A DNA stretch of 64,000 nt from Candidatus Latescibacterota bacterium (lineage in GTDB: Bacteria; Latescibacterota; UBA2968; UBA8231), in contig OZ252098.1 in assembly GCA_965248355.1 (NCBI GenBank), forward strand, positions 5,248,001-5,312,000, given 5' to 3'. The notes beneath the pieces are model-generated. The model saw only the letters and a list, made by a program, of their open reading frames with translations, did no database searches and was not told the origin of the DNA. Shown here one piece after another: positions 5,205 to 41,162 of this stretch. A program made the position numbers and the translations under genes. Each line of letters opens with the position of its first letter. The first letter of the stretch is position 1.

Positions 5205-5236
5205 CATCCATGAACCCGAAAAAAGGAGGTGTCCAG

Positions 5237-5645: not shown

Positions 5646-5652
5646 AGGTCCC

Positions 5653-23324: not shown

Positions 23325-23348
23325 CCGCCGGGCAGAAAGGAGAGACGG

Positions 23349-24619: not shown

Positions 24620-25510
24620 ATGAGAATCGAGATACAGGGGCTGACCAAGCGCTACCGCGGCGGCTTCCACGCCCTGAGGGACGTGGACCTGGAGATCGGC
24701 AGCGGCATGTTCGGCCTCCTCGGGCCCAACGGCGCCGGCAAGACCACCCTCATCCGCATCCTCGTCACCCTGCTCAAGGCGACCTCCGGCCGCGTCCTGG
24801 TGGACGGCATGGACATCGACCGCCACCGGGGGCAGGTGCGGCGCCTGGTCAGCTACCTGCCCCAGGAGTTCAGCCGCTTTCCGCGGCTGGCGGCGTGGGA
24901 GGTCCTCGACTACCAGGCCTGCCTGCGGGGGCTGGGCCGCCGGGAGCGGGCCGAGCGCATAGACCGGCTCCTGGAGCTGGTGGGCCTCTTCGAGGTGCGC
25001 GACCGCCAGGCGGGCAAGCTCTCGGGCGGCATGAAGCGCCGTCTGGGCATCGCCCAGACCCTGATCGGCGATCCCTCGATCCTGGTGGTGGACGAGCCCA
25101 CGGTGGGGCTCGATCCCCAGGAGCGGCTGCGCTTCCGCAACCTGCTGGCCGACCTCGCCAAGGGGGACATCGTCATCCTCCTCTCCACCCACATCGTGGG
25201 GGACATCTCCTCCACCTGCACCGACATGGCGCTGTTGAACCGGGGCCGCGTCGCCTGGCGGGGCCCGCCGGCGGGACTGATCGAATCGGCCCGGGGCCGG
25301 GTGTGGAAGGTGGCGGCCACCCACGCCGAGCTGGACGGGCTGAAGGAGCGCTTCGCCGTCGTCTCCACGGTACCGTCGGTGGAGGGATACGAGGTCCGCC
25401 TGGTGGCCGACGAGCCGCCGGCGGCCTCGGCGGCGGCGGCGGCCCCCGGCCTGGAGGACGCCTACCTCCATCACCTGCAGTCCATCGAGCGCGACGGCCG
25501 GGGACCATGA
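24620..25510 (+). CDS. ABC transporter ATP-binding protein
   Basis: GPNGAGKT, LSGGM, VVDEPT, STH. Confidence 0.95.
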   Translation: MRIEIQGLTKRYRGGFHALRDVDLEIGSGMFGLLGPNGAGKTTLIRILVTLLKATSGRVLVDGMDIDRHRGQVRRLVSYLPQEFSRFPRLAAWEVLDYQACLRGLGRRERAERIDRLLELVGLFEVRDRQAGKLSGGMKRRLGIAQTLIGDPSILVVDEPTVGLDPQERLRFRNLLADLAKGDIVILLSTHIVGDISSTCTDMALLNRGRVAWRGPPAGLIESARGRVWKVAATHAELDGLKERFAVVSTVPSVEGYEVRLVADEPPAASAAAAAPGLEDAYLHHLQSIERDGRGP

Positions 25511-28500
25511 CCCTGTCCGGCCGATGGTGGACGGTGGCCCGCTACGAGTGCCGGCTGCTGTGGCGGTCCTGGGCCTTCCGCCTGTCGGCCCTGGCCGCGG
25601 TCGGGTTCCTGCTGCTCCTCCAGATCGTCTTCACCGCCCCTTTCAGCGGCGCCCCCTTCTCCTTCCGCTCCTTCTCCGGGGCCCTGCCCCTCACCGCCGT
25701 CCGCCTCCTCAACCTCTACCTCGGACTGGTGACGGCCCTGCTGGCCACCGAGTTCGTCAAGCGCGACCGCCAGCTCGACAGCTCCGAGGCGGTGCTCGCC
25801 AACTCCTTCACCAACCCCGGGTACGTGGCCGGCAAGATGCTGGGGATCGGCCTGGCCGTGGGCGGGCTGGTGGCGGCGGCCCTGGCGGTGGTGGCCGTGA
25901 ACCACCGGTTCTTCACCGACGCGCCCTTCGCCTGGCAGCCGTACCTGCTGCTGCCCCTGCTGGGCACCCTGCCGACCCTGGCCCTCACCAGCGGCCTGGC
26001 GTGCCTGCTGATCACCCTGCTGCGCAGCCAGGCGGTGGTGCTCATGCTGATGCTGGGCCTGTGGGCGGCGGCCGTCTTCGGGGGCCAGGGGCAGTTCCAG
26101 CTCTTCGACATCTTCGCGTTCTGGATCCCCATGGCCTGGTCGGACTTCGTCGGCTTCGGGAATGAGGAGCAGCTCGTGCGCGTGCGCGGCGCCCACCTGC
26201 TCGCGGGCCTGGGATGCATGGCGGCGGCGGCCCTGCTCATGGGCCGGCTGCGCCAGTCGCTGGCGGCCAACGCGGCGGCGGCGGTCCTGGCCGTGGCCTG
26301 CCTCGGGGGGGCCGTCTGGATGGGGCACACGTACCTGGAGGACCGCCTCGCCGGCCGCGAGCGCCGCGAGCACCTGGTCTCCCTGAGCCGCGCCGCGGCC
26401 ACGGCGCCGGCGGCCTCGGCCACCGCCTGCGAGATCGAGGTCGAGCACCGGGGCCGCGAGCTGGCCGTCACCGGCGTGGTCGACCTCCTCAACCCCCACG
26501 CCGAGCCCCTCGACTCGCTGCTGTTCACGCTCAATCCGGGGCTGCGGGTGGCGGCGGTCACCGTCGACGGTGTGGAGGTCCCCTTCCGGCGCGACGGCCA
26601 CCTGCTGCGGGTCGCCCCCGCCGCGCCCCTGGCTCCCGGCGACAGCGCCCGGGTGCGCATCGACTACCGCGGCGCCCCCGACGACGGCGCCGCCTACCTC
26701 GACGTGGACCGCGAGCGCTTGGAGGCCGGGTTCAGCTACTGGGTGATCGGCGTGCCCAAGGCCTACAGCTTCGTCACCCCCGGTTTCCTGCACCTGACGC
26801 CGGAGGCCGCCTGGTACCCCGTGAGCGGACTGCCGCCGGGGGCCGCCTTCCCGGCCGCCGGCCGGCGCGACTACCCCCGCTTCCGGCTGTCCGTGGAGGT
26901 GCCCCGCGGCTGGACGGCCTTCTCCCAGGGGCGGACCCAGGTGGACACCACCGAGGCCGGCCTGCGCTTCCGCTTCGAGAGCGGGCCCCTGCCGGGGATC
27001 TCGCTCACGGCGGGCGAGTACGAACGCCGGCAGGTCGAGGTGGACGGGGTCGCCTACAGCCTCGGCGTCCGGCCGGGGCACGCCTACTTCGACGCCCACC
27101 TGGATTCCCTCGGCGAGGCCCTGCCGGGGCTGATCCGGCGGCTGCGCGCCGACTACGAGGCGGCCCTGGGCCTCGAGTATCCGTACCCGCGCCTGTCGCT
27201 GGTGGAGGTGCCCCTGCAGGCCTGGTCCTACCGCCGGCTGTGGACCCTGGCCCAGGAGTCGGTGCAGCCGGAGATCGTCTTCCTGCCGGAGATGGGCACC
27301 CTCTGCGATGCCAGCGACTTCCGCCGGCTGAAACGGCGCTCGCGGCGCAGCCAGGAGCGGGCCAACCAGGCGGAGAGCGCCGAGGACCTGCAGTCCGGGT
27401 ACCTGCGCACCTTCTTCGAGGTCGACCTGATGGGCACGCGGTCCCTCGGGTGGTCGCCCCTGGGCAGCCCGGAGCTGCGAAGGCGTTACCACCTGCTGCC
27501 CAACTTCGTCTCCTTCGGCACCCACCTGTCGTCGCCCCGGTGGCCGGTGCTCAACGCCGCCTTCGAGACCTGGTTCGAGCTGGGTCTGGCGCCGGCGGGG
27601 AACCCCTGGTCCCGGCGATGGAGCGGGCTCACGGCAGCGGAGCGGGCCAACCTCACCCTGCAGGAGCACGGTCTGCGGGAGCTGCTGGCCTCCCCGGAAG
27701 AGGCCGGGGAGGAGGGCCTCGAGGCGGCGGTCCGGGCCAAGGCCCGGCAGCTGCTCCTGGGCTTCGCCGCCGCCGCCGGTCCCGAACGGTTCGACCGGGA
27801 GATGACCGCCTTCCTGCGGCGGCACCGCGGCCGGCCGGCGTCGGAGGCCGACCTGCTGGAGATGCTGGAAGGGCTCGGGGTGGAGGGGGTGGAGGCGCGG
27901 CTGGAGGCCTGGTTCGGCGGCACCGAGCTGCCCGGGTACGAGATCGAGGGCGCCGACGCCTGGCTGGTGCGCCAGGGGGAGCGGACGCGGACCCAGGTCG
28001 AGCTGACCATCTCCAACCCCACGGCGGTGGACGGCGTCGTCGAGGTGGGCCTCCGCTTCCGCGGGACCGAGCAGGAGGCCTGGTTCGACCGCGGCGCCGG
28101 CTCCGACCACCGGCGCATGGTGGCGTTGCCGGCGGCCTCGAGCAAGCGCGTCGGCCTCGTCGTCGACACCCCGGTGGCGGAGATGGTGGTCGACACCTAC
28201 GTCTCCCGGAACCTGCCGGCCCACATCCAGGTGCCCCTGCCGGAGGCCCGGCTGCGCCGCGGCGCCGAGCCCTTCGACGGCGAGCGCCTGGAGGCCCTGG
28301 CCGGGGACGGGGCGGAGGGCGAGTACGTCGTCGACAACGAGGACCCCGGCTTCGAGGTCATGGAGGCGGAGCGGCCCAACTGGCTGCGCCGGCAGATCGC
28401 CGACCTCTTCGACCTGGAGGCCGACGCCGTGCCGTACGTGGGCTTTCATTTCTGGAGCCCGCCGCGCACGTGGGAGGCGGCCACGGCCCCCGGGTTCTAC

Positions 28501-28863
28501 GGCCGCTTCGTGCTCTCCGGCTACTACAAGCGGGCCGGCGACGGCCGCAGCCGGGTCTCGTGGCGCACCGAGATCGGCGAGGCCGGCCGCTACGATCTCT
28601 TCTACTACCTGGGTTCCTTCGAGGAGCTGCGGTGGCGGGGACGGGGGCGGGGACAGGAGCTGAGCTTCCTCGTCTATCACGAGGACGGCGTCGAGTCGTC
28701 GAGCCTGGACATGGCCGGGGCCGAGGAAGGATGGAACCTGCTGGGAACCTATCCGCTGGCCGCCGGTCCGGCCCACGTGGAGCTGACCGACCGGGGACCG
28801 GAGCGCACCGTCGTGGCCGATGCCGTGAAGTGGGTGCGGCAGGACGCGCCCCGGCGCAACTGA
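25507..28863 (+). CDS. ABC-2-type permease fused to an M1-aminopeptidase-like periplasmic region and a C-terminal Golvesin/xanthan-lyase-like CBD
   Basis: About 7 N-terminal TMs; FTLNPGLRV, WYP, YPYPRLSLVEVP; C-terminal VDNEDPGF...GWNLLGTY...VVADAVKWV. No HExxH seen. Confidence 0.75.
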   Translation: MTLSGRWWTVARYECRLLWRSWAFRLSALAAVGFLLLLQIVFTAPFSGAPFSFRSFSGALPLTAVRLLNLYLGLVTALLATEFVKRDRQLDSSEAVLANSFTNPGYVAGKMLGIGLAVGGLVAAALAVVAVNHRFFTDAPFAWQPYLLLPLLGTLPTLALTSGLACLLITLLRSQAVVLMLMLGLWAAAVFGGQGQFQLFDIFAFWIPMAWSDFVGFGNEEQLVRVRGAHLLAGLGCMAAAALLMGRLRQSLAANAAAAVLAVACLGGAVWMGHTYLEDRLAGRERREHLVSLSRAAATAPAASATACEIEVEHRGRELAVTGVVDLLNPHAEPLDSLLFTLNPGLRVAAVTVDGVEVPFRRDGHLLRVAPAAPLAPGDSARVRIDYRGAPDDGAAYLDVDRERLEAGFSYWVIGVPKAYSFVTPGFLHLTPEAAWYPVSGLPPGAAFPAAGRRDYPRFRLSVEVPRGWTAFSQGRTQVDTTEAGLRFRFESGPLPGISLTAGEYERRQVEVDGVAYSLGVRPGHAYFDAHLDSLGEALPGLIRRLRADYEAALGLEYPYPRLSLVEVPLQAWSYRRLWTLAQESVQPEIVFLPEMGTLCDASDFRRLKRRSRRSQERANQAESAEDLQSGYLRTFFEVDLMGTRSLGWSPLGSPELRRRYHLLPNFVSFGTHLSSPRWPVLNAAFETWFELGLAPAGNPWSRRWSGLTAAERANLTLQEHGLRELLASPEEAGEEGLEAAVRAKARQLLLGFAAAAGPERFDREMTAFLRRHRGRPASEADLLEMLEGLGVEGVEARLEAWFGGTELPGYEIEGADAWLVRQGERTRTQVELTISNPTAVDGVVEVGLRFRGTEQEAWFDRGAGSDHRRMVALPAASSKRVGLVVDTPVAEMVVDTYVSRNLPAHIQVPLPEARLRRGAEPFDGERLEALAGDGAEGEYVVDNEDPGFEVMEAERPNWLRRQIADLFDLEADAVPYVGFHFWSPPRTWEAATAPGFYGRFVLSGYYKRAGDGRSRVSWRTEIGEAGRYDLFYYLGSFEELRWRGRGRGQELSFLVYHEDGVESSSLDMAGAEEGWNLLGTYPLAAGPAHVELTDRGPERTVVADAVKWVRQDAPRRN

Positions 28864-28873
28864 AGGAGACCGC

Positions 28874-30331
28874 ATGAGGGGGGGGAGATTGATGCTGCCG
28901 CTGGTCCTGTGGGCCGCGGCGCCGGCGCCGGGCGAGGTGCTGCGGCTCGAGGACGCGCTGCGCATCGCCGGCGACCGCAGTCCGATCCTGGCCGAGGCGC
29001 GCCACGGCCTCGAGACCAGCCGCCACGAGCTGGAGGCGCAGCGGGCGGGGCTCAAGTCGAGGCTCGGCCTCACGGTGACGCCCTTCGAGCACAGCCGCGA
29101 CCGGACCTTCAACGAGCTGGTCTCCGGGTACAACACCCAGGAGCAGACCCACGCCGGGGCCCGGTTCACCATCCAGCAGACCATCGAGCCCACCGACGGC
29201 ACCCTCAGCCTGGTGCAGGCCTTCGACTGGCGCGACGCCTCCAGCTCCTTCGCCGGGGCCGGCTCGCGGCGCTCGTACAGCAATGCCCTGTTCCTGCGCT
29301 ACAGCCAGCCGCTGTTCACCTACAACCGGACCCGCCTGGAGCTCAAGCGCCTGGAGCTGGGCCTGGAGAACGCCCTCCTCGGCTTCGCCGTCCAGGAGCT
29401 GCAGATCGAGAGCCGGGTGACGCGCCAGTTCCTCAACCTCTACTACCTGCAGCGCAACCTGGCCATCGCCGTGGAGGAGATGCGCAACGCCGAGGAGAGC
29501 CTGGAGATCGTCGGCGCCAAGGTGGAGGCCGGCATCACCGCCCGCGAGGAGCTGCTCCAGGCGGGCCTGACCCGGGCCAACAGCCGCGCCGCTGTCGAGA
29601 ACGCGCGGCTCCAGTACGAGGACGGCCTGGACGACTTCAAGATCCTCCTGGGCCTGCCCCTGGACATGGAGCTGAAGGTCGAGGCCGATGTCCGCAAGCG
29701 CCTCGTGGAGGTCGATGCCCGGCTGGCCGAGCGCCACGGGCTGGACCACCGCATGGAGATCCGCCAGCGCCAGATCGAGGTGGACAACGCCCTCGACGAG
29801 TTGATCCAGACCGGGGCGCAGAACGAGTTCAAGGGCTCCGTGGACCTGACCTACGGCCTCACCGGCACCGACCCCGCCCTGGCCTATCTCTACGACTCGC
29901 CCACGCGCAACCAGGAGGTCGGCATCCGTTTCGAGGTGCCGATCTTCGACTGGGGCGAGAACGAGCACCGCCTGGCCGCGGCCCGCGAGCGGGTGGGCAG
30001 CCGCAAGCTGTCGGCGGCCGAGGAGGAGCGGCGCATCCTCAAGGAGATCCGCCAGGGCTGCCGCGGCCTGGGCAACCAGGCGGCGCAGATCGAGATCGCC
30101 GAGAAGAGCGTCGAGAGCGCCCGCCAGACCTACCGCCTCAACCTGGAGCGCTACCGCAACGGCGACCTGCCGTCGAAGGACATCGCCTTCTACCAGACCC
30201 AGCTGTCGCGGGAGCAGCTCAACGAGGTGCGGGCCCTGATCGACTACCGGCTGGCCCTGCTCGATCTGAAGGTGCGCACCTTGTGGGACTTCGCCGCCGG
30301 CGAGCCCGTCATCAACCTCGAACCACGCTAG
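28874..30331 (+). CDS. TolC-family outer membrane efflux protein
   Basis: LRLEDALRIA, YSQPLF, EVPIFDWG, ERYRNG. Confidence 0.9.
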   Translation: MRGGRLMLPLVLWAAAPAPGEVLRLEDALRIAGDRSPILAEARHGLETSRHELEAQRAGLKSRLGLTVTPFEHSRDRTFNELVSGYNTQEQTHAGARFTIQQTIEPTDGTLSLVQAFDWRDASSSFAGAGSRRSYSNALFLRYSQPLFTYNRTRLELKRLELGLENALLGFAVQELQIESRVTRQFLNLYYLQRNLAIAVEEMRNAEESLEIVGAKVEAGITAREELLQAGLTRANSRAAVENARLQYEDGLDDFKILLGLPLDMELKVEADVRKRLVEVDARLAERHGLDHRMEIRQRQIEVDNALDELIQTGAQNEFKGSVDLTYGLTGTDPALAYLYDSPTRNQEVGIRFEVPIFDWGENEHRLAAARERVGSRKLSAAEEERRILKEIRQGCRGLGNQAAQIEIAEKSVESARQTYRLNLERYRNGDLPSKDIAFYQTQLSREQLNEVRALIDYRLALLDLKVRTLWDFAAGEPVINLEPR

Positions 30332-30339
30332 GAGGCGAC

Positions 30340-31407: not shown

Positions 31408-34400
31408 TGGAATCCCTGGCGCGGTTCTCGGTCTCCCGCCCGGCGACGGTGCTCATGCTCGTCCTGGCCGTCCTGCTCCTGGGCGGCCTCTCCTTCGGGC
31501 GTCTGGGCGTGGAGCTGCTGCCGGACCTGGCCAACCCGAGGCTGTTCGTCGAGGTCGAGGCCGGGGACCTGCCGCCGGCCGAGGTGGAGGCGCGCATCGC
31601 GGCCCCCGTCGAGGCGGCCGCCTCCCTGACCCGCGGGGTCGTCGACGTCGCCTCGGTATCGCGCACCGGCGGCGCCCAGGTCACCGTCGAGTACGGCTGG
31701 CACGTCGACATGGACGAGGCCTTCCTCGACCTGCAGAAGGGCATGGCCGAGTTCGCCCGGCGTCCGGACGTGGGGGAGATCTCGGTGAGCCGGCACGACC
31801 CCAACGGCCGGCCCGTGGTGGTGGCCGCCTTCCGCCACCCGGAGGTGGAGGACCTCGACGCCCTGCGGCGCACGGCCGAGAGCATCGTGCGCAGCGAGCT
31901 GGTGCGCCTGCCCGGAGTGGCCGCCGTCGAGGTCGTCGGCGCCCGCCGCCGCGAGGTGGAGGTGCTCACCGACGCCTACACCCTCGAGGCCTACGGCCTC
32001 ACCCTCGAGCAGCTGGCCGCGGCGATCCGGAGCGCCAACCGCAACATGTCGGGCGGCTCCATCGTCGAGATGGGCCGCCGCTACCTGATCCGGGGCGTGG
32101 GGGAGTTCTCCTCGGCGGCCGACCTCGAGGCCCTCGTGGTCGCCCAGGTCTCGGGGCCGGCGGCGGGACCGCAGGGGGCTGGCCCTCAGGCGCAGGAGGC
32201 CCCCGAGCCGAAGCCCGTCTTCCTGCGCGACCTGGCCGAGGTGCGCCAGGTCCTGAGCGAGCCCCGGAGCATCGTGCGCCTCGACGGCCGCCGCTGCCTC
32301 GGCCTGGAGATCTACAAGGAGGCCCGCTTCAACACCCTCGACGCGGCCCGGGCCGTGCACGACCAGCTGGAGTCGCTGCGCCGGAGCCTGCCGGGCTACG
32401 AGATCGAGGTGATCCAGGACCAGTCGCGGTTCATCGCCGCGGCCGTCTCCGAGGTGGAGGAGACCGGCCTCATCGGGGTGCTGCTGGCGGTGGTCGTGCT
32501 CTTCGTCTTCCTGCGCCGGGTGGGGGTGACGGCGGTGATCAGCCTGGCGATCCCGATCTCGGTGGTGGCCACCTTCAACCTGATGTACTTCGGCGAGCTG
32601 AGCCTGAACCTCATGACCCTGGGCGGTCTCGCCCTCGGCGCCGGCATGCTCGTTGACAACGCCATCGTGGTGGTGGAGAACGTCTTCCGCCACCTGGAGC
32701 AGGGCGAGTCCCCGTCGCGGGCGGCGATCCGGGGCGCCGGCGAGGTGGGGGGCGCGATCACCAGCGCCACCCTGACCACCATCGTCGTCTTCCTGCCCAT
32801 CGTCTACCTCCAGGGCGCGGCCGGGGAGCTGTTCCGGGAGCAGGCCTGGACCGTGGCCTTCTCGCTGCTGTCGTCGCTGTTCGTCGCCCTCCTCGTCATC
32901 CCCATGCTGTGCTCCCGGCTCCTCGGCGACGGCGGCGGCGCCCCGCCGGCCGGCCGGGTTCCCTTCCCGCGCTACGGGGCCCTGCTGACGGCCCTGCTGC
33001 GCCGCCGGGTGGCGGTGGCGCTGACGGCCGCGGCCCTGGTGGCGGCCACGGCCGCCGTCCTGTCCCGCCTGGGCAGCGAGTTCATGCCCCACCTCGACCC
33101 CGGGCAGCTGTCCCTGCGCCTGACCCTGCCCGAGGGCACCACCCTGGCCCGCACGGAGGGGGCGGTGGGCAACGTGGAGGCGTCGATCGCGCAGTCCCTC
33201 GGCCCGGAGCTGGGGCACCTCTACTCCCGCGTCGGCCGGACGGCCGGCGCCGGGGGGGGCGAGTCCCTGGCCGGCGAGAACCACGCCGTGATCCACGTGC
33301 AGCTCCGCCCGGGCAGCCCGGTCTCCCCGGCGGCGCTGGCCCAGGCCCTGGGCGAGGCCCCGGCCGGGCCCGACGCGCAGGTCCGCTACCTGCTGCGGGA
33401 GACGGCCCTGGAGACCAGTCTAGGGCGCTCGGACGCGCCGGTGGTGGTGGAGATCCACGGCCGGGCCCTCGGGGTGCTGGCCGGCCTGGCGGGGCAGGTG
33501 GAGGAGCGGCTGGCCGCGGTCGAGGGGCTCACCGGCGTGGAGTCGAGCCTGGGGCCCGGCCGGCCGGAGATCGAGATCGTGGTGGACCGCGCCGCGGCGG
33601 CCGTCTTCGGCCTGAGCAGCGACGCCGTCGGCTCGCAGCTGGAGGGCCTGCTCTCCGGACAGGAGGCCGGCCGCCTGCGGCAGCGGGGGGAGGCCGCCGA
33701 CATCGTCATCCGGCGGCCCCGGGTGACCCCGGCGGAGCTGCGCGGCCTGCTGCTGGAGGCGCCCGGGGGGCGGCGGGTGCGCCTCGACGAGGTGGCCCGG
33801 CTGCGGGACACCGTGACGCCCCGGGAGATCCTGCGCCGCAACCAGCAACGGGTGGTCACGGTGAGCGCCCGCCTCGATGGGGAGGAGCCCTTCGACCGGG
33901 TCGCCGGGCGCGTCGACGAGGCCCTCCGGCAGGTGGACCGGCCGCCGGAGTACGGCTTCGTCCTCACCGGCGAGGAGAAGCTGCGCCGGGACTCGTTCGA
34001 CAACCTGCGCTTCGCCCTGGTGCTGGCGGTGGTCCTCGTCTACATGGTGATGGCCGCCCAGTTCGAGTCCCTCGTGCACCCCTTCGTCATCCTCCTGACC
34101 ATCCCCCTGGCCGGGGTCGGCGCCGTGGCCCTGCTCCTGGCCCTCGGCATGCCCCTCAACGTGATGTCCTTCATCGGCGTCATCCTGCTGGCCGGGATCG
34201 CCGTCAACGACTCCATCGTGCTCGTGGACCGCATCAACCGCAACCGCCGGGCCGGGCAGGATCTCGAGGCGGCCATCGTGCACGCCGGCCGGACGCGCCT
34301 GCGGCCGATCCTGATGACGAGCCTGACCACCATGCTCGCCCTGCTGCCCCTGGCCGCCGGCGCCGGCGAGGGCGCCATGCTGCGGGCGCCCATGGCGGTG

Positions 34401-34517
34401 GCCGTCATCGGCGGCCTGTTCAGCTCCACGGCCCTCACCCTGGTCGTGGTCCCCTGCGTCTACCACCTCCTGGCCCGCATCGACCGGCTCCGTCCGGCGC
34501 AGGCCCCGGCGCCGTGA
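31407..34517 (+). CDS. RND efflux permease (AcrB/CzcA superfamily)
   Basis: GMLVDNAIVVVEN, AAQFES, RLRPILMTSLTT. Confidence 0.95.
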   Translation: MESLARFSVSRPATVLMLVLAVLLLGGLSFGRLGVELLPDLANPRLFVEVEAGDLPPAEVEARIAAPVEAAASLTRGVVDVASVSRTGGAQVTVEYGWHVDMDEAFLDLQKGMAEFARRPDVGEISVSRHDPNGRPVVVAAFRHPEVEDLDALRRTAESIVRSELVRLPGVAAVEVVGARRREVEVLTDAYTLEAYGLTLEQLAAAIRSANRNMSGGSIVEMGRRYLIRGVGEFSSAADLEALVVAQVSGPAAGPQGAGPQAQEAPEPKPVFLRDLAEVRQVLSEPRSIVRLDGRRCLGLEIYKEARFNTLDAARAVHDQLESLRRSLPGYEIEVIQDQSRFIAAAVSEVEETGLIGVLLAVVVLFVFLRRVGVTAVISLAIPISVVATFNLMYFGELSLNLMTLGGLALGAGMLVDNAIVVVENVFRHLEQGESPSRAAIRGAGEVGGAITSATLTTIVVFLPIVYLQGAAGELFREQAWTVAFSLLSSLFVALLVIPMLCSRLLGDGGGAPPAGRVPFPRYGALLTALLRRRVAVALTAAALVAATAAVLSRLGSEFMPHLDPGQLSLRLTLPEGTTLARTEGAVGNVEASIAQSLGPELGHLYSRVGRTAGAGGGESLAGENHAVIHVQLRPGSPVSPAALAQALGEAPAGPDAQVRYLLRETALETSLGRSDAPVVVEIHGRALGVLAGLAGQVEERLAAVEGLTGVESSLGPGRPEIEIVVDRAAAAVFGLSSDAVGSQLEGLLSGQEAGRLRQRGEAADIVIRRPRVTPAELRGLLLEAPGGRRVRLDEVARLRDTVTPREILRRNQQRVVTVSARLDGEEPFDRVAGRVDEALRQVDRPPEYGFVLTGEEKLRRDSFDNLRFALVLAVVLVYMVMAAQFESLVHPFVILLTIPLAGVGAVALLLALGMPLNVMSFIGVILLAGIAVNDSIVLVDRINRNRRAGQDLEAAIVHAGRTRLRPILMTSLTTMLALLPLAAGAGEGAMLRAPMAVAVIGGLFSSTALTLVVVPCVYHLLARIDRLRPAQAPAP

Positions 34518-37500
34518 CCGGCGCCCTGGTCCGGCGGCCCGTGGCGGTGACCATGCTGCTGGCCGCCGGCTGCCTGCTGGGGGCCGTCTCCTACGGGCGT
34601 CTGCCCGTGGAGCTGATCCCCTTCGCCGAGCTGCCCATGCTCGTGGTGCAGGTGCAGGGGGGGCGCGACTCGGAGCCGGAGCAGGTCGAGAGCCGGGCCG
34701 TCATCCCCCTCGAAGGGGCGATCGCGGGACTGCCCGGGATCGAGCGGATCGAGTCCTACGTCGAGTCGCGGGGGGCCCGGATCCTGGTCTACTACAGCAG
34801 CCGCGTCGACCCCGGGCACGCCTACCTGCGCCTGGAGCAGCGGGTGACGGCGGCGGCGGCCGGCCTCGACGAGGAGATCGGCGTGCGGGTGCTCAAGGTC
34901 GACACGGAGCAGCTGTCGACGCAGTTCATGTCCCTCGAGGCGCGCGGCGAGGGCGGCCTCGACCGGATCCGGCACGTGGTCGACCGCAAGGTGGTGGAGG
35001 AGCTGAGGCACGTGGACGGCGTCGCCAACGTCTCCGTGTACGGGGGCCGGCGGCGCTCGATCGAGGTGCGCCTCGACGAGGAGGTCCTGGCCGGCCACGG
35101 ACTCACGGTGGCGCAGGTGGGGGCCCAGGTCGCCCAGGGCTCCCGTCGCCGGCGTCATCTCGGCGAGGTGGCCGACGGCGGCGGACGGCTCTTCGTCAGC
35201 CTGGTCTCCGACTACACCTCCATGGCCGACCTCGAGGAGACCGTCCTGCGGGACGGGTTGCGCCTGGGGCACGTGGCGTCGGTGGTCGACGGGGGGGCGG
35301 AGCGCCAGACCATCGCCCGCGTGAACGGCCAGGAAGCGGTGGCCCTGTCCCTGATGCGCGACCCCGAGGCCAACCTGCTGGAGCTGTCGGAGGCCGCCGC
35401 GGCCGTGGTGGAGGACCTGAACCGGCAGCTGGCCCCGGAGGGCGTGGAGCTGGTGGTCCGCAGCGACGCCGCCGAGCCGGTGCGCGAGAACATCGGGGAC
35501 ATCCAGTCCCTGGCCCTGCTCGGCGGGGGGCTGGCGGTGGCCGTGCTCTGGGTCTTCCTGCGCAACCTGGTCCTGGTGGCCGTGGTGGCCCTGTCGATCC
35601 CGGTGTCGGTGCTGATCTCCCTGAACCTGTTCCACGCCCTGGACCTCACCCTCAACTCCCTGTCCCTGGTGGGCATGGCCGTGGCCGTGGGCATGCTCAT
35701 CGACAACAGCATCGTCGTCCTGGAGAGCATCTACCGGCGGCTGGCCCGGGGCGAGGCGCCGGACGAGGCCGTGACCGGGGGCGTGGCCGACGTGCGCCGC
35801 GCCGTGGTGGCGGCGACCCTGACCACGGTCTGCGTCTTCCTGCCCTTCGTCTTCGCCGAGGGCTACCTGATCCGCCTCCTGGGGCGCGAGGTGGGCGTGG
35901 CCATCATCTCGACGCTGCTCGTCTCCCTGGCCGTGGCCCTGCTGCTGATCCCCGTGGTCACCTGGCGCCTCGCGGTGCGCCGGTCCGGGGCAGGGCTCGC
36001 CTTCAACGCCGTCTCCCAGCGCCAGCGGGCGGTGCAGGTCTACTCGCTGCTGCTCAAGTCGTGCCTGCGCTTCCCGGCGCGCACCGTCATCGCCGCCGTG
36101 GCCGGCTTCTTCCTCACCGTGGCCGTCTGCCTGGCCCTCAGCATCGACCGCTCGCGCCCGGTGGAGCTGGACCGCTTCGACGTGTACGCGGGGCTGCCGG
36201 GCGGGGCCACCCTCGAGCTGGCCGACGAGCTGGCCCTGGCCATGGACGCGCGCCTGGCGAGGGTGGAGGAGCTGGAGGAGCGCCGCATCGCCGTGCGGCC
36301 CGATCTCCTGCACCTCGACCTGGGTCTGCGCGAGGACTTCCGGGAGATCGCCGGCCGCGGCGTGGGCGAGGTGCGGGAGGAGGTGCGCCAGGAGCTGAGG
36401 GAGGCCTTTCCGGCCCTGTGGTTCACCTTCGACGCGCCCCGGGGCGGCGCCGGGTTTCGCGGCGGCGGCGGTGGAGGAGGGGGCGGCATGGGCGGGGCCT
36501 TCGGCCGGCTGCTGGGGATCGGGGAGAGCGGCGATCGCCTCCTCCTCCGGGGCCGGGACATGGGGCTCCTGCGCCGGGTGGCCGACGACCTGCGCTACAA
36601 CCTCGAGCGCCTGACGGCGGTCCAGTACGCCAGGGTGGCCGAGGCCGAGCGCCAGCCGGAGATCTCCCTGTTCCTCGACCGGGCCGCCCTCAAGCACCAC
36701 GGCGTCACCGAGGAGGCCGTCTCCGGGGAGCTGGCCAGCTTCCAGCCGCAGGTGTCGTCGCCGGCGCGGGTGCGGCGGGGCGCGGAGGAGCTGGAGGTCC
36801 TGCTGCGCAGCGGTGAGCCGGGGGACCGCCGCATCGAGGACCTGCGGCGGGTGCAGGTGCCGGCCGAGGGGGGAGGATCGGTGCCCCTGCCGCGGCTGGC
36901 GGACCTCGTGTACACCAGCGGCAGCGGGCGCATCGCGCGCGTCAATCAGGAGAAGGAGCTGGCGGTCAGCTACCGGTTCCAGAGCGAGGTGAGCAGCTCG
37001 GCGGGACTGCTGGCCGAGGGGCGGTCCGCCGTCGACCAGCTGGTCTCGGACCTGTCCCCGCCGTCGGGGGTGTCGGTCGAGGTCGTCCGCGACGAGACCG
37101 ACCTGGAGCCCTTCTACTTCCTCCTCGCCGCCTCGGTGGTGCTCATCTACATGATCCTGGCCGCGGTCTTCGAGTCCCTCGTGGCGCCCCTGGCGATGAT
37201 GATCACCCTGCCCCTGGCCACGGTGGGGGGGCTCTGGGCGCTGGTCCTCACGGGCCACTCCATCCTCGACACCAACGCCCTCGTGGGCTTCGTGATCCTC
37301 CTGGGGGTGGTGGTCAACAACGGCATCATGCTCATCGACTCGGCCCGCGCCCGGCAGCGCCGCGGGGCGCGTCTCTCCCGGGCCCTGCTGCAGGCCGGCC
37401 AGGGCCGCCTGCGGCCGATCGCGATCACCGCCCTGAGCACGATCCTGGCGCTGCTGCCCCTGGCCATGGGCAAGGCCGAGTACGTGGCCGTCATCGGCGT

Positions 37501-39199
37501 GCCCTTCGCCGTGGCCGTCATCGGCGGCCTGCTGGCGGGGACCCTCTTCACCCTGGTCCTGGTGCCCACGGTCTACGCCGGCCTGGAGCACACCCTGGCC
37601 TGGCTGCGCGGCCTCGGCGGCTGGACCCGGGCGGCGCAGCTGGCGGCGCTGGCCCTGGGGGCCTGGCTGATCCAGGAGCAGGTGGACGGCCTCCTGTGGC
37701 GGGTCGTCGACGGCACGGTGCTGCTGGGCGGGGTCCCGGCCCTGACCTGGTTCCTGCAGACCAGCCTGCGGCGCAGCCGCGCCGACCCGATCCCCCGCGA
37801 CCGGCCCCTGCGCATCTCGGTGGCCAACCTGGTGAAGGTCTACGACGACGAGCCGCGGTTCCTGCGCCAGTGGCGCCGGGGGGAGCGGCAGCGGGCGCGC
37901 CTGCGCGCGGCGGGGGAGGCGGAGGCGGTGGGCCGCCTGGGGGCCCTGCGCTGGCAGCTGCCGCTGCTCGGCTTCCACTTCTACTTCGCCTACCTCTACC
38001 TGGAGAGCGACTTCTGGGCGATGGTGTTCTCGGTGGCCTTTGTCCTCTTCCTGGCCGGCGCCGTGCGCCCCTTCCTGCCGCCGCCGCAGGGCCGCCGGCG
38101 ACGCCTCGTCCGCGGGCTCTGGTCGACCCTGTTCTGGCTGCTGCCCCTGCCCCACCTGCTCTGGTACCAGGACCGCTGGGACAACTGGGCGCTCACCGTC
38201 CTCGTGGGCATCCTCTGGTACCTCGGGGCCGTGGTGCACCGCGGTGCCCGCCGGCTCTACCGCGGCCAGGTCAACGTCGACGGTCTGGCCGGACGCTTCC
38301 GGCGCAGCCGCCGCCTGCTCTACCGGCTCGTGGCCTGGCTGCCGCTCATCGGCCGCCGCCGCCGGCCCTTCCCGGCCCTGAAGCAGGCCTCCCTCGAGAT
38401 CGAGAGCGGCATGTTCGGACTCATCGGGCCCAACGGCGCCGGCAAGACCACGCTCATGCGCGTCCTCTGCGGCATCCTGGAGCCGACGCGGGGCAAGGTG
38501 CGGGTCAACGGCATCGACCTGTCGGCCCGGCGCGAGGAGCTGCAGGCCCTGATCGGCTACCTGCCCCAGGCCTTCGGCACCTACGAGAACCTGACGGCGT
38601 ACCGGTTCCTCGACTACCAGGCGATGCTGAAGGGCCGGTGGGACGCCGGAGAGCGGCGCCGGGCCGTGGAAGAGGCGATCCGCGCCGTGCACCTGGAGGA
38701 CAGCCGCGATCGCAGGATCGGGGGGTTCTCGGGGGGGATGAAGCAGCGGGTGGGGATCGCCCAGACCCTGCTGCACCTGCCCCGCATCCTGGTGGTCGAC
38801 GAGCCGACGGCGGGCCTCGACCCGAGGGAGCGCATCCGCTTCCGCAACCTGCTCGCCGAGCTGGCCCGCGACCGGGTGGTGGTGTTCTCGACCCACATCA
38901 TCGAGGACATCTCCAGCTCCTGCAACCGGCTGGCCGTGCTCGGCGATGGCGAGGTCCGGTTCCTCGGGACCCCCCGGGAGATGGTGGAGCTGACCCGCGG
39001 GGCCGTGTGGCAGGCGTCGGTCCCCGAGGCCGGCTTCGAGGCCCTGCGCCGGACGGCGCGGATCGTGCACCACATGCGCGACCAGGACCGCATCCGCGTG
39101 CGCCTGCTCGCCGCCGAGCGGCCCCTGCCCGGGGCCGCCGAGGTCACGCCGACCCTGGAGGACTCCTACCTGTGGCTGCTGGAGGGCCGCGAGAGGTGA
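34514..39199 (+). CDS. RND permease - ABC ATPase fusion protein (~1561 aa)
   Basis: RND motifs GMLIDNSIVVLE, AAVFES, RLRPIAIT; extra TMs; then GPNGAGKT, FSGGM, DEPTAGLD, STH. One uninterrupted frame. Confidence 0.9.
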   Translation: MTGALVRRPVAVTMLLAAGCLLGAVSYGRLPVELIPFAELPMLVVQVQGGRDSEPEQVESRAVIPLEGAIAGLPGIERIESYVESRGARILVYYSSRVDPGHAYLRLEQRVTAAAAGLDEEIGVRVLKVDTEQLSTQFMSLEARGEGGLDRIRHVVDRKVVEELRHVDGVANVSVYGGRRRSIEVRLDEEVLAGHGLTVAQVGAQVAQGSRRRRHLGEVADGGGRLFVSLVSDYTSMADLEETVLRDGLRLGHVASVVDGGAERQTIARVNGQEAVALSLMRDPEANLLELSEAAAAVVEDLNRQLAPEGVELVVRSDAAEPVRENIGDIQSLALLGGGLAVAVLWVFLRNLVLVAVVALSIPVSVLISLNLFHALDLTLNSLSLVGMAVAVGMLIDNSIVVLESIYRRLARGEAPDEAVTGGVADVRRAVVAATLTTVCVFLPFVFAEGYLIRLLGREVGVAIISTLLVSLAVALLLIPVVTWRLAVRRSGAGLAFNAVSQRQRAVQVYSLLLKSCLRFPARTVIAAVAGFFLTVAVCLALSIDRSRPVELDRFDVYAGLPGGATLELADELALAMDARLARVEELEERRIAVRPDLLHLDLGLREDFREIAGRGVGEVREEVRQELREAFPALWFTFDAPRGGAGFRGGGGGGGGGMGGAFGRLLGIGESGDRLLLRGRDMGLLRRVADDLRYNLERLTAVQYARVAEAERQPEISLFLDRAALKHHGVTEEAVSGELASFQPQVSSPARVRRGAEELEVLLRSGEPGDRRIEDLRRVQVPAEGGGSVPLPRLADLVYTSGSGRIARVNQEKELAVSYRFQSEVSSSAGLLAEGRSAVDQLVSDLSPPSGVSVEVVRDETDLEPFYFLLAASVVLIYMILAAVFESLVAPLAMMITLPLATVGGLWALVLTGHSILDTNALVGFVILLGVVVNNGIMLIDSARARQRRGARLSRALLQAGQGRLRPIAITALSTILALLPLAMGKAEYVAVIGVPFAVAVIGGLLAGTLFTLVLVPTVYAGLEHTLAWLRGLGGWTRAAQLAALALGAWLIQEQVDGLLWRVVDGTVLLGGVPALTWFLQTSLRRSRADPIPRDRPLRISVANLVKVYDDEPRFLRQWRRGERQRARLRAAGEAEAVGRLGALRWQLPLLGFHFYFAYLYLESDFWAMVFSVAFVLFLAGAVRPFLPPPQGRRRRLVRGLWSTLFWLLPLPHLLWYQDRWDNWALTVLVGILWYLGAVVHRGARRLYRGQVNVDGLAGRFRRSRRLLYRLVAWLPLIGRRRRPFPALKQASLEIESGMFGLIGPNGAGKTTLMRVLCGILEPTRGKVRVNGIDLSARREELQALIGYLPQAFGTYENLTAYRFLDYQAMLKGRWDAGERRRAVEEAIRAVHLEDSRDRRIGGFSGGMKQRVGIAQTLLHLPRILVVDEPTAGLDPRERIRFRNLLAELARDRVVVFSTHIIEDISSSCNRLAVLGDGEVRFLGTPREMVELTRGAVWQASVPEAGFEALRRTARIVHHMRDQDRIRVRLLAAERPLPGAAEVTPTLEDSYLWLLEGRER

Positions 39200-39900
39200 A
39201 GGGGCCTCTCGGCAGCGCCCCCGCCTTCCTGCGCTACAGCGCCGGGCAGGTCTTCGCCGGCCGGTTCCCCTGGTTCCTGCTGCTGGCCGTGGCCCTGTTC
39301 CTCACCATCGCCGTCATATACACGGCCTCCGAGAAGGTGCCGCCGGGCCCCGATCTCATCTACTACTTCCTGCTGGCGCCCGGGGTGGTGCTGGTGATCT
39401 ACCCCTCGGCCTACGCCGTGCAGAGCGAGGTCGACGCCGGCATGGTGGAAACCCTCTTCGGGATCCCGGACTACCGCTACAAGGTGTGGCTGGCGCGGCA
39501 CGCCGTGCAGCTGCTGACCGCGGCCGTCCTGCTGGCCGGGCTGGCCTCGTTCTGCCGCCTCGCCCTCACCGACTTCGCCGTCCACGAGATGGTCTTCCAC
39601 CTCATGTTCCCGGTGGCCTTCCTCTCCAGCGCCGGCTTCCTGCTGGCCACCCTCACGCGCGGCGGCAACGGCGCCCTGGCCGTGCTCGTGCTGGTCGTGC
39701 TCGCTCTGTGGATCGCCGCCGAGCCCCTCGAGGGCAGCCGCTGGAACCCGTTCTACAACCCCTTCGCGCTGCTCGACGAGGTGGAGGGCCTGGTGCGCTC
39801 GGGGACCACCTTCCACAACCGCGCCTACCTGCTCTCCGGGTCGGTCCTGGCCGTCCTCGGAGGCCTGCTGCGCCTGCAGCACCGCGAGCGCTTCGTCTGA
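39196..39900 (+). CDS. ABC-2-type permease
   Basis: GTGA overlap; about 6 TMs; SEVDAGMVETLFGIP coupling-helix-like segment. Confidence 0.8.
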   Translation: MKGPLGSAPAFLRYSAGQVFAGRFPWFLLLAVALFLTIAVIYTASEKVPPGPDLIYYFLLAPGVVLVIYPSAYAVQSEVDAGMVETLFGIPDYRYKVWLARHAVQLLTAAVLLAGLASFCRLALTDFAVHEMVFHLMFPVAFLSSAGFLLATLTRGGNGALAVLVLVVLALWIAAEPLEGSRWNPFYNPFALLDEVEGLVRSGTTFHNRAYLLSGSVLAVLGGLLRLQHRERFV

Positions 39901-40750: not shown

Positions 40751-40911
40751 CAGGGATCCTGGCGGCGCAACTCGGCGCCCGGTTGCGTGTTTCGCCGTGC
40801 GATCCGCTCGAGCTGCGGTTGGATGGCCGACATGACCGCGGCGAAGACGACCGCCACCTGCACGGACCGCCAGATCACGTCGGCTGCCGCGGACAGCCGC
40901 GTGGGGCTCGG

Positions 40912-41112: not shown

Positions 41113-41162
41113 CGGCTGTGCTCATCGTGAGTCGTCGGGGGTCGGAACATGGAAGTGCCGGA

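Follow-up and report, generated by a model that had tools for sequence, protein, structure and literature searches.

RND and ABC pumps are usually taught as alternatives. The locus described here raises the question of whether a single open reading frame can join a subunit of the one to the ATPase of the other and, if so, what kind of machine such a protein would serve. We find that the 1,561-residue fusion gene is real, is widely conserved, and belongs to a fixed cassette of seven genes for envelope export; two pump types thus appear to be combined in one machine. In keeping with the preliminary description of this DNA, which knew of no characterised example, neither an RND::ABC-ATPase fusion nor the seven-gene cassette was found described in those parts of the literature available to us, part of one large review included.

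The window (the whole 64,000-nucleotide stretch analysed) is part of a closed, single-contig genome of 5.5 Mb. A GC3 frame plot and start-codon scan place seven tightly coupled plus-strand genes at positions 24620-39900 (Table 1), with junctions that are overlaps of 4 nt or 1 nt, or else gaps of 8-10 nt. GC3 phase, start codons and Pfam domains (both domains in the fusion; ABC_tran, OEP, HlyD and ACR_tran in the remaining genes) uphold the gene inventory first proposed, the in-frame fusion included, along with its full set of two NBDs and two permeases. The OMF matches Pfam OEP in two stretches (E 1.8e-35), its matches to TolC and NodT subfamily models both falling below cut-off, and the MFP matches RND_mfp (E 4.3e-53; 180.3 bits against a cut-off of 94.9) as well as HlyD_D23 and HlyD_3; no further MFP or OMF accompanies the two transporter types of the cassette. 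An RNA library yielded only short contigs near-identical to the cassette, for which DNA carry-over is possible. The gene neighbourhood gives no hint of substrate, the downstream neighbours in 25 loci being unrelated housekeeping genes.

Table 1. Features of the cassette, in window coordinates
Feature	Position	Strand	Size or basis
NBD1, free ABC ATPase (DrrA/GldA-like ABC-2-type NBD with C-terminal domain)	24620-25510	+	296 aa; Pfam, NCBIfam
TMD-L, large ABC-2-like permease	25507-28863	+	1118 aa; GC3 phase
OMF, outer-membrane factor, TolC-like	28874-30331	+	485 aa; Pfam OEP
MFP, periplasmic adaptor	30340-31407	+	355 aa; NCBIfam RND_mfp TIGR01730
RND1, stand-alone RND permease	31407-34517	+	1036 aa; ACR_tran
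RND2::NBD2 fusion gene	34514-39199	+	1,561 residues; ACR_tran and ABC_tran in one ORF
RND2 body of fusion (residues 1-1035)	34514-37618	+	ACR_tran E 1.1e-150
TM13-14, two predicted extra membrane helices (residues about 1036-1089), chain back to cytoplasm	37619-37780	+	AF2
Displaced first beta-strand and A-loop tyrosine of NBD2, as aligned and modelled (residues 1099-1110, 'LRISVANLVKVY')	37808-37843	+	alignment, AF2
NBD2 insertion, ~175 residues: predicted amphipathic helix, TM15-18, cytoplasmic helix	37844-38368	+	AF2
NBD2 core (residues 1286-1561) and stop codon	38369-39199	+	ABC_tran E 3.7e-29
TMD-S, small six-helix permease	39196-39900	+	234 aa; GC3 phase

Between ~34600 and ~39100 the GC3 of the fusion gene keeps to one phase, at 0.92-1.00, also across the linker, and no stop codon occurs in that frame within 32909-39199. 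Contigs from three studies span the RND-linker junction, and none of them carries an insertion or deletion across it: one (X2 record 13, 36536-38450), possibly from the window's own source sample, shows 0 differences, whilst the others (X5 record 19, 36434-38449; X6 record 26, 36434-38190) show 20 and 12 substitutions respectively, with 0 gaps. The preliminary description had allowed that homologues might always encode RND and ATPase separately and that reads might show a stop or indel near the junction; besides the indel-free contigs, RND2, linker and NBD2 share one frame at 69 of 72 loci outside the phylum.

This architecture is not confined to one genome. PF00873 and PF00005 occur together in every one of the best 120 database clusters, 112 of which reach at least 1500 aa. 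The linker is carried by half of the 168 phylum genomes (84/168); in 73 of the 84 carriers the open frame around it is 1500 aa or longer, the remaining 11 being assemblies of 170-820 contigs. When 1.84 billion representatives were searched with a linker-only profile, 138 proteins were returned; 27 are 1,550 to 1,590 aa long with the linker at about 1040 to 1300, and the remainder are shorter and look like pieces. Five short forms illustrate this: P0155 and P0223 come from contigs of 2.4 to 3.8 kb and fall in 90%-identity clusters with members of 1,567 and 1,570 aa; P0131 and P0134, on contigs of 1.6 and 5.1 kb, are singleton clusters with no full-length member for comparison; and P0125, which shares a 391-kb contig with a second piece, P0268, clusters with a 1,559-aa member. 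A word search for shorter forms gave 4 matches, all piece-like, and neither search found a free-standing linker.

Synteny across phyla, which had been suggested as a check, gave a similar picture: gene order is unchanged in 10/10 loci from the phylum, all nine segments are collinear in 48 of 80 loci from other phyla (a contig start cuts 29 of the other 32), and in every case TMD-S lies directly downstream of the fusion. The cassette does vary in content, in that the OMF was not found in four of the ten phylum loci (L023, L024, L026 and L027) and the NBD1 orthologue of Gabonibacter lies ~390 kb from the cassette.

The join between RND2 and NBD2 is not a simple tail-to-head fusion but a run of six extra membrane helices, four of which sit between the first strand of NBD2 and the remainder of the domain. 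TM13-14 are predicted by AF2 at residues 36-56 and 60-89 of the modelled fragment (add 1000 for protein numbering) and are followed by a positively charged SLRRSR stretch; P1075, S1084, L1085 and R1086 are invariant in alignment A1, and P1075 and L1085 (fragment P75 and L85) remain so in the 53-sequence alignment A2. Judged by alignment and model, NBD2 is split after its first strand by a membrane-helix insertion. AF2 predicts a strand at fragment 101-110, in which K108 and Y110 do not vary among 53 sequences, and VIA alignments to solved NBDs start at model residue 97-100 and take in almost all of the solved chain, from its residue 1-2 onwards (for 1vpl, Z 27.7, rmsd 1.8, 234/238 residues). 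Positions 1-20 of an NBD1-family HMM also map to the displaced strand in 9/53 targets, which alone is not significant. The insertion has no Pfam match; its predicted helices (fragment 115-132, 138-162, 166-187, 194-222, 225-250 and 263-275) keep their length and hydrophobic pattern across phyla in the 53 sequences, the extra helices are paired, and the Arg-rich loops fall on the predicted cytoplasmic side. The fragment model has a pTM of 0.60, with a pLDDT of 55-66 at the TM12-TM13 junction.

Both ATPases look catalytically competent from their motifs. NBD1 (ABC_tran E 1.9e-29; NCBIfam DrrA subfamily E 4.3e-60, below cut-off) has Walker A, Q-loop, an LSGGMKRR signature, Walker B with E, and H-loop; all 53 NBD2 sequences keep the Walker A motif (GPNGAGKT), the Q-loop, FSGGMKQR, STH, and VVDEPT, which includes the catalytic Glu. 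The two are paralogs, as originally proposed, being 48% identical across 287 residues (E 3e-82) and carrying the motifs then quoted. Foldseek relatives of NBD2 include TM_1403 (4yer, E 9e-19) and NosF (7osf_B at rank 4, 7o0y_B at rank 22).

The two RND subunits likewise differ as first described, at 32% identity over their full length. RND1 covers the ACR_tran profile from 2 to 1020 of 1021 (E 1.4e-220), and MdtB (9lyq_B) is the nearest solved chain for both, matching RND1 with E 2.1e-90 and RND2 in two stretches, 5-538 and 760-1032. At the positions of AcrB 407/408 and 940/941, RND1 has D-N in TM4 and N-D in TM10; RND2 has D397-N398 and N935-N936, invariant in 14 homologues and present in 60/63 orthologues. 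D408 and K940 of AcrB are thus absent from both, whilst equivalents of R971 and T978 are retained. Since unfused RND paralogues of the same genome (L004, L005, L006 and L008) also have DN (or DS) / NN motifs, we regard their absence as a lineage trait rather than a consequence of fusion, and therefore as no evidence for an ATP-driven RND; equally, with both residues missing, proton coupling is assumed by family.

TMD-L begins with an ABC-2-like membrane domain (about 1-297; below cut-off for ABC2_membrane_2, E 0.0019), continues with a part of M1-aminopeptidase fold (Peptidase_M1 E 0.39) and ends in a Golvesin_C-like beta domain (E 5e-11). In a Foldseek comparison of its AF2 model (pLDDT 87, pTM 0.85), the periplasmic part matches IRAP (8cgp_B, E 4.2e-18) and also ERAP1 and EryP, with ~640 columns at 10-14% identity and E about 1e-17 for these folds. 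HExxH and GxMEN are both absent, the former from all 42 orthologues, and on motif and modelled fold this part is a catalytically dead M1-aminopeptidase fold. TMD-S has six hydrophobic segments and matches no Pfam or NCBIfam family; against ABC-2 families, both permeases give weak matches or none.

Complex prediction, another check suggested at the outset, places TMD-S on NBD2 with a score of 0.62, the best of three controls scoring 0.00. Among solved complexes 116 of 157 come up to that mark, and among mismatched pairs 2 of 215, a guide that is only rough here because we used our own alignments; contact agreement between runs was at least 86%, and partner pLDDT at least 73. The predicted interface sets the Q-loop and helical subdomain of NBD2 (residues 1316-1381 and 1417) against loop 81-97 of TMD-S, its most conserved loop, and its confident part excludes the inserted helices. 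In this prediction the small permease docks in the canonical coupling groove of the fused ATPase. Contact between the Q-loop groove and a coupling helix is textbook for ABC transporters, and the pass may for that reason reflect likeness to solved ABC transporters. The six-helix tether, the split NBD, the dead M1 fold and the lack of D408 and K940 are not in the preliminary description.

Synthesising these observations, we tentatively favour a single envelope export assembly, in which one protomer of a heteromeric, MdtBC-like RND pump carries the tether of a heterodimeric ABC-2 transporter, and the pump receives its substrate from that transporter. One module would be a tripartite RND pump (RND1 and RND2, probably as a mixed trimer by analogy with MdtB2C, with adaptor and TolC-like channel), presumably proton-driven by family; the other would be a heterodimeric ABC-2-type transporter pairing NBD1 with TMD-L and NBD2 with TMD-S. 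The chain would run from the RND body through two extra helices to the first NBD strand, then through four membrane helices to the rest of the NBD, and the ABC module would be kept next to a single RND protomer by this six-helix tether. If each trimer has a single RND2, it would have one NBD2 to pair with one free NBD1, which would resolve the mismatch between 3-fold and 2-fold symmetry and explain why two RND genes are retained. We suggest that in a first step driven by ATP hydrolysis the ABC module would take substrate out of the cytoplasm or inner membrane, by extraction or flipping, or else capture it in the periplasm with the dead M1-peptidase clamshell of TMD-L; the substrate might then be handed to the periplasmic entry of the RND and leave through adaptor and channel. 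Contacts beyond the covalent link, stoichiometry, hand-over and energy use are what we infer here.

A somewhat unlikely alternative is that the ABC module acts as a mechanotransducer, of the kind proposed for NosDFY and MacB-type systems, and not as a membrane translocator: ATP hydrolysis would open and close the TMD-L clamshell, which would catch a substrate from the periplasm or outer leaflet (for example a peptide, a lipopeptide or a molecule bearing a glycan) and deliver it into the RND pump. M1 enzymes have open and closed states, the conserved want of a zinc motif fits a binding rather than an enzymatic role, and NosF is among the nearest solved NBDs; fold likeness, however, proves no function, and the minimal second permease and complete heterodimeric ABC-2-like set retained everywhere fit a true translocator as well.

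It is unlikely, too, that the cassette encodes two independent pumps around a common adaptor and channel, fused for co-assembly, co-localisation or fixed stoichiometry with neither hand-over nor energetic coupling. One MFP and one OMF do serve two transporter types here, the modelled tether is long and of uncertain geometry, and ABC-2-type transporters encoded with an MFP of their own exist in E. coli, as in YbhFSR, whose MFP is YbhG. Yet the linker, whose length and helix pattern are kept across phyla along with several invariant residues, was not found outside the fusion, and splitting an NBD with four membrane helices would be a costly route to mere co-localisation.

We consider it improbable that the RND is itself ATP-powered or ATP-gated, with NBD dimerisation pulling on the six-helix tether to drive or license the RND2 cycle and so replace or supplement proton coupling. 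The covalent link from TM12 into the NBD would permit this, and neither RND has the D407-D408 pair or TM10 lysine of AcrB; but the unfused paralogues share these motifs, the R971 and T978 equivalents persist, the cassette always includes two dedicated ABC permeases, and in the model NBD2 docks on TMD-S, which would give the ATPase an ordinary job. Lastly, an assembly error, frameshifted gene pair or pseudogene is refuted for the window by its closed genome, unbroken GC3 signal, indel-free contigs and the long frame conserved elsewhere, notwithstanding three loci with parts in different frames (L042, L103 and L107) and the gene in two pieces noted above.

Of known systems, the tripartite RND pumps MdtABC-TolC and MuxABC-OpmB likewise have two tandem RND paralogues behind one adaptor gene. 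In the parts of PMC4338810 available to us, MdtBC is a B2C heterotrimer, a mixed trimer whose subunits have established, unequal roles, and MdtB and MdtC are ~50% identical, against only 32% for RND1 and RND2. The cassette differs further in that one paralogue bears six more helices and an ABC ATPase, a complete ABC set is added, and its RNDs, besides lacking D408 and K940, score far below the NCBIfam MdtB and MdtC cut-offs.

The E. coli systems YbhG-YbhFSR and YhiI-RbbA-YhhJ, encoded together with an adaptor protein, likewise combine ABC-2/DrrA-type NBDs with two different membrane subunits, and an RbbA NBD model matches NBD1 (E 1e-45) and NBD2 (E 1e-41), both below cut-off. They lack an RND, their NBDs are not interrupted by membrane helices, and they have no periplasmic domain of M1 fold; the ABC-2-type architecture of YbhFSR is taken from a source available in part.

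MacAB-TolC is a tripartite ABC pump and a type VII mechanotransducer. As described in the available parts of PMC5985334 and PMC5673888, it resembles the cassette in that its ATP-driven component sits in the inner membrane, has a large periplasmic domain and acts together with adaptor and TolC. MacB, however, has four helices, a periplasmic domain between TM1 and TM2 and an N-terminal NBD, whereas the cassette has permeases of six or seven helices, a C-terminal periplasmic domain and an NBD fused to an RND. NosDFY, whose NosF likeness is given above, also combines a large periplasmic module with an ABC-2 membrane subunit of six helices, but the module is of other fold and function, and the complex has no RND, adaptor or channel. 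Finally, the NBD2 insertion falls between strands 1 and 2, at what we take to be the same site of the NBD fold as the regulatory insertion of CFTR NBD1, which lies between the first two beta-strands; there the insert is a short, soluble, disordered loop, whereas here it is ~175 residues long with four predicted membrane helices.

The joining of an RND subunit and an ABC ATPase in a single polypeptide is confirmed. Third-position GC stays at 0.92-1.00, in a single phase, from ~34600 to 39100, a span that takes in the linker, and the RND-linker junction is crossed by contigs of three public studies with 0, 20 and 12 substitutions, no gaps and no indel listed (the best-matching run, with 0 differences, may be the window's own source). 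An indel at the junction, part of what the preliminary description had named as refuting, is listed in none of these contigs, and it is scarcely conceivable that the fusion is artefactual. As a separate observation, at the Walker A codons (38415-38461) the contigs of all four public runs either stop or fork, and word depth leaps to 1,600-6,300; assemblies fragment inside the fusion gene because this P-loop DNA is common to many other ABC genes of the communities.

The window's genome is a closed, single contig of 5.5 Mb with a G+C content of ~72%, so that many long open reading frames are spurious; genes were therefore placed by third-position GC phase, together with start codons at phase changes. 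On these grounds, and from matches in Pfam and NCBIfam, the coordinates and gene list first drawn up for the cassette are correct.

Features of the cassette and its surroundings (window positions)
Feature	Coordinates	Strand	Description
Upstream gene pair	22365-24479	+	acetyltransferase-like; epimerase/dehydratase
NBD1	24620-25510	+	free ABC ATPase
TMD-L	25507-28863	+	large permease, 1118 aa
OMF	28874-30331	+	
MFP	30340-31407	+	adaptor
RND1	31407-34517	+	
RND2::NBD2	34514-39199	+	fusion
TMD-S	39196-39900	+	small permease, 234 aa
Thymidylate synthase	39914-41182	minus	
Region of lower G+C	41000-44551	minus	helicase gene with metallopeptidase tail

All seven cassette genes lie on one strand, with junctions that are either overlaps of 1-4 nt or gaps of 8-10 nt, and their family matches are ABC_tran, OEP, HlyD/RND_mfp and ACR_tran, with ACR_tran and ABC_tran falling within one open reading frame. 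The MFP (TIGR01730, above cut-off) and OEP genes sit directly upstream of the RND genes, an association by gene adjacency alone. A scan for promoters and terminators gave 0 promoter-like sites and 1 terminator-like site, the latter inside a gene, which is chance level; public RNA runs share a small proportion of words with the window, one of them (X16) giving eight short contigs at 90-99% identity, which does not in itself demonstrate transcription. Ending 140 nt upstream of NBD1 are genes for a GNAT/FemAB-like acetyltransferase (Acetyltransf_6, E 5.5e-22) and an NAD-dependent epimerase/dehydratase. On the other flank, G+C drops from ~0.72 to 0.60-0.66 across a gene whose product, a SWI2/SNF2 helicase, is like a type I restriction R-subunit and has a YgjP-like metallopeptidase tail; this region may be an acquired island adjoining thymidylate synthase.

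The fusion is widely distributed. With residues 1030-1561 as query, the best 120 database clusters all carry both PF00873 and PF00005, 112 of them at 1500 aa or longer, with source names pointing to Gemmatimonadota, Zixibacteria, Latescibacteria and Aminicenantes; the source databases call these proteins 'efflux RND transporter permease subunit', 'ATP-binding cassette domain-containing protein' or 'AcrB/ABC-type ... ATPase subunit'. Within the window's phylum, 84 of 168 genomes (34 of the 52 of high quality) match a linker query of 297 residues; in 73 of these 84 carriers the frame that holds the linker is open over 1500 aa or more, the remaining 11 being assemblies of 170-820 contigs. A search of one genome per species found 585 stretches encoding a relative, from which 80 loci were retained for cassette comparison; they come from Gemmatimonadota, Zixibacteria, Aminicenantes/Acidobacteriota, KSB1, Calditrichota, Krumholzibacteria, Zhuqueibacterota, Melioribacteraceae and many Bacteroidota, and include two cultured carriers, Gaoshiqia hydrogeniformans Z1-71 and Gabonibacter massiliensis GM7. 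Where RND2, linker and NBD2 are all present, they share one frame in 69 of 72 loci, the exceptions (L042, L103 and L107) having them in different frames.

A profile of the linker alone, run against 1.84 billion representatives, matched 138 proteins, 27 of which are 1,550-1,590 aa long with the linker at ~1040-1300; the others are, by the table of matches, shorter. Five of these short forms were inspected individually. Two (P0155 and P0223), from contigs of 2.4-3.8 kb, fall into clusters that have members of 1,567 and 1,570 aa; two more (P0131 and P0134), from contigs of 1.6 and 5.1 kb, are singletons; and the fifth, P0125, lies with a second piece, P0268, on one 391-kb metagenome contig, where the fusion gene has been called as 752 + 676 aa. 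As the 90% cluster of P0125 includes a 1,559-aa member, this pair is a frameshifted or broken copy of the fusion gene. A word search with the linker among shorter proteins gave 4 matches, read as pieces. Across these loci, carrier genomes and five inspected short forms, there is thus no sign that homologues always encode RND and ATPase separately, a finding that would have counted against the preliminary description.

Synteny across phyla, proposed at the outset as a check, is likewise conserved. The order NBD1, TMD-L, (OMF), MFP, RND1, fusion, TMD-S holds in 10 of 10 loci from five families of the window's phylum, and in other phyla nine query segments are collinear on one strand in 48 of 80 loci, with 29 of the other 32 cut by a contig start. 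Tandem RND paralogues are retained in every complete locus. Among the ten phylum loci, an OMF was not found in four (L023, L024, L026 and L027, of genomes G054, G090, G142 and G042, respectively), where TMD-L and the adaptor have no such gene separating them; the space left in L023 is only ~220 nt. The linkers of these four are 28-39% identical to that of the window over the 297-residue query, and those of Gemmatimonadota, Zixibacteria and Krumholzibacteria are 40-60% identical to it over a different, 244-residue query; taken with the OMF-less loci, this pattern of identities suggests two subfamilies or inter-phylum transfer. The NBD1 gene is absent beside TMD-L in L086 (Sanguibacteroides) and in L105 (G. 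massiliensis GM7), where the upstream genes are Ham1 and RecO, and L103 is without the first three genes. In Gabonibacter an NBD1 orthologue is nonetheless present ~390 kb away (G168:C7:1690799-1691677; 53% identity against a background of roughly 35%), so that the free ATPase is retained even when unlinked. No conserved neighbour hinting at a substrate was found among 50 downstream ORFs of 25 loci, which are unrelated housekeeping genes; the cassette is self-contained.

Both ATPases appear equipped for catalysis, with Walker A, Q-loop, signature, Walker B with its catalytic glutamate and H-loop all present in NBD1 and NBD2 (ABC_tran E ~1e-29 for each), a shared xSGGMK variant of the signature, and ATPase motifs in NBD2 that are invariant across 53 sequences. 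At 48% identity, the two bear out the original description of them as paralogues. They differ in that NBD1 is contiguous and NBD2 is not. Past RND helix 12, the fusion has two additional helices (residues ~1036-1089) and then a positive stretch, followed by LRISVANLVKVY, which resembles the NBD1 N-terminus 'RIEIQGLTKRY' and whose lysine and tyrosine are invariant in 53 sequences from many phyla. Between this segment and strand 2/Walker A lie ~175 residues, in which an amphipathic helix is joined by four predicted membrane helices, with loops rich in Arg, such that the predicted strand 1 and A-loop stand apart from strand 2.

AlphaFold2, run on residues 1001-1561 with a 53-row alignment, gave a model (mean pLDDT 80, pTM 0.60) that places a strand at 1101-1110, along with the helices of the tether. 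On realignment of the top Foldseek chains, solved NBDs match nearly whole, from their residue 1-2, at model residue 97-100 (1vpl: Z 27.7, rmsd 1.8, 234 of 238 residues; LptB 4p31_B: Z 26.9, rmsd 1.8, 222 of 230 residues). The match of an NBD1-family HMM to NBD2 starts only at HMM position 17; positions 1-20 fall on the early segment in 9 of 53 targets, without significance. The prediction from the model is that this early segment supplies the first strand of NBD2, with the four helices looping out of the strand-1/strand-2 hairpin. Foldseek and VIA found no fold relatives of the inserted helices, matching only the NBD part of a model whose residues before 97 they barely probed. The notion that the six-helix tether is a degenerate ABC-2 permease found no support, hhalign of TMD-S against the C-terminal fragment giving an E of 0.61.

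In the model of TMD-L (pLDDT 87, pTM 0.85), six or seven helices at the N-terminus precede a large extracytoplasmic part, for which Foldseek returned IRAP, ERAP1, EryP and APN (E 4e-18 to 4e-15 over ~640 columns, at 10-14% identity); TM-scores to the M1 enzymes are 0.28-0.32 when normalised to the query and 0.36-0.46 when normalised to the target, with rmsd of 9-11 Å. As modelled, then, the periplasmic part has an M1 aminopeptidase fold. Neither the zinc-binding HExxH nor the exopeptidase GxMEN motif is present in the window's TMD-L, HExxH occurs in 0 of 42 orthologues, and Pfam Peptidase_M1 (PF01433) reaches only E 0.39; we therefore read this part as a probable binding or scaffolding module, as opposed to an enzyme. 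A Golvesin_C-like domain ends the protein. Among the ABC-2 permease profiles (Pfam PF12679 and its clan), the match to ABC2_membrane_2 falls below the Pfam cut-off (E 0.0019; 17.9 bits against 27.2). In the ESM Atlas, the only names attached to the cluster of TMD-L are 'ABC transporter permease' and 'Xanthan lyase family', with Golvesin_C; clusters of M1-permease proteins there score 0.87-0.88, no more than a lead.

TMD-S has six hydrophobic segments and no family in Pfam or NCBIfam; its hhalign match to TMD-L is collinear and not significant (E 0.089). Complex prediction of residues 1030-1561 of the fusion with TMD-S scored 0.62, against 0.00 for the best of three controls, at a mark attained for 116 of 157 solved complexes and for 2 of 215 mismatched pairs, counts that are a rough guide here since our own alignments were used. 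Runs share at least 86% of contacts, with partner pLDDT of at least 73, and in the predicted interface TMD-S, through its most conserved loop (81-97) and its N-terminal helix, contacts NBD2 at the Q-loop and helical subdomain, the inserted helices not included. This points to docking of TMD-S on NBD2 by a classical coupling-helix interface; because the contact is of this classical kind, the score may owe much to solved ABC transporters.

Both RND subunits match the 12-helix body with two periplasmic loops (PF00873): RND1 at E 1.4e-220 over profile positions 2-1020 of 1021, and the fusion at E 1.1e-150 in two stretches. They are 32% identical to one another and share MdtB (9lyq_B) as closest solved chain, to which RND2 aligns at 5-538 and 760-1032. 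Neither carries the AcrB-type proton relay (D407, D408, K940): TM4 has D-N in both, against D407-D408 of AcrB/MdtB, and TM10 has N-D in RND1 and N-N in RND2, against K-N in MdtB, leaving Asn at the K940 site. DN/NN is found in 60 of 63 RND2 orthologues and DN in 51 of 56 for RND1. The TM11 arginine and threonine are kept ('RLRPIAIT' in RND2 and 'RLRPILMT' in RND1, against 'RFRPILMT' in MdtB), with R965 and T972 of RND2, the equivalents of AcrB R971 and T978, invariant in 14 homologues. We considered whether the fused RND had lost its relay as ATP took over, a reading for which these residues are no evidence, the same motifs (D-N or D-S in TM4, N-N in TM10) occurring in four unfused RND paralogues of the same genome (L004, L005, L006 and L008); judged from sequence, DN/NN is a trait of this RND lineage and carries no information on the fusion. 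The periplasmic part of RND2 also contains a conserved glycine-rich loop, 'FRGGGGGGGGG...GRLLGIG' (36437-36553; residues ~642-680), in which P642, G650, G668, G670 and G680 are invariant in 14 homologues; RND1 aligns poorly here, and contigs of the public runs break at ~36315-36565.

Synthesising these findings, we tentatively propose, at somewhat short of an even chance, that the cassette encodes a heterodimeric ABC-2-type transporter tethered to the RND2 subunit of a mixed RND trimer, with substrate leaving by way of the RND part. NBD1 with TMD-L, and NBD2 with TMD-S, would form the two halves of the transporter, and RND1 and RND2 a mixed trimer that works with the adaptor and the channel; such a trimer is known from MdtB2C, with two subunits that differ in role (PMC4338810). 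The six-helix tether would mount the ABC dimer on a single RND2 protomer. One RND2 per trimer would yield one NBD2 to pair with one NBD1, which is our proposed reason for both RND genes always being kept. ATP would then power a first step, in which substrate is either extracted from the inner membrane or captured in the periplasm by the M1-fold module, and the RND part would power exit.

Other arrangements can be envisaged around the same tether. It is rather unlikely that the ABC part acts as a mechanotransducer, and unlikely that these are two independent pumps joined only for assembly. A dual-energy pump, in which closure of NBD1 on NBD2 is passed through the tether (wired, as predicted, into the NBD β-sheet) to the membrane domain of RND2, such that ATP and the proton gradient jointly drive, or ATP gates, one cycle, is distinctly unlikely; if true, it would be the first case of mechanical coupling between an RND transporter and a primary ATPase. 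That the RND is driven or gated directly by ATP is more doubtful still. The earlier interpretation of a hybrid RND-ABC machine is partly supported.

RND pumps, which are proton-driven and trimeric, and ABC transporters, which are ATP-driven and dimeric, are seen as two alternative ways of powering tripartite efflux. The cassette joins both, and does so intact across Gemmatimonadota, Zixibacteria, Aminicenantes, KSB1, Calditrichota, Krumholzibacteria, Ignavibacteria-like lineages and many Bacteroidota. It thus offers a test bed for the passage of substrate from an inner-membrane transporter to a periplasm-sampling RND pump, for the mounting of a 2-fold machine on a 3-fold one, and for whether an NBD can function with membrane helices running through its first hairpin. 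The fusion cassette is uncharacterised and open to study in cultured strains, direct work being feasible because G. hydrogeniformans and G. massiliensis carry it; since gut Bacteroidota (Odoribacter, Rikenellaceae) also do so, its substrate range may bear on tolerance of bile, antimicrobials or their own secreted products.

Finally, each module of the cassette is of a known kind, and their combination is absent from the literature searched: no description of a natural RND-ABC fusion was found in the openly accessible literature, a body that leaves subscription journals and curated transporter databases (TCDB) outside, nor does one appear in the 'fused' and 'hybrid' passages within the first 300,000 characters of a review of tripartite pumps (PMC8277102). 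Among RND pumps, the pair stands apart from MdtB and MdtC, scoring far below the cut-offs of their equivalogs (NF007798, 1584; NF007905, 1774) with 346.7 and 354.3 bits for RND1 and 266.8 and 255.8 for the fusion. Among ABC systems, MacB-type (type VII) pumps have four helices, a periplasmic domain between TM1 and TM2 and an NBD fused to the permease; unlike these, TMD-L bears its periplasmic domain C-terminal to six or seven helices, and TMD-S has six helices and no such domain.
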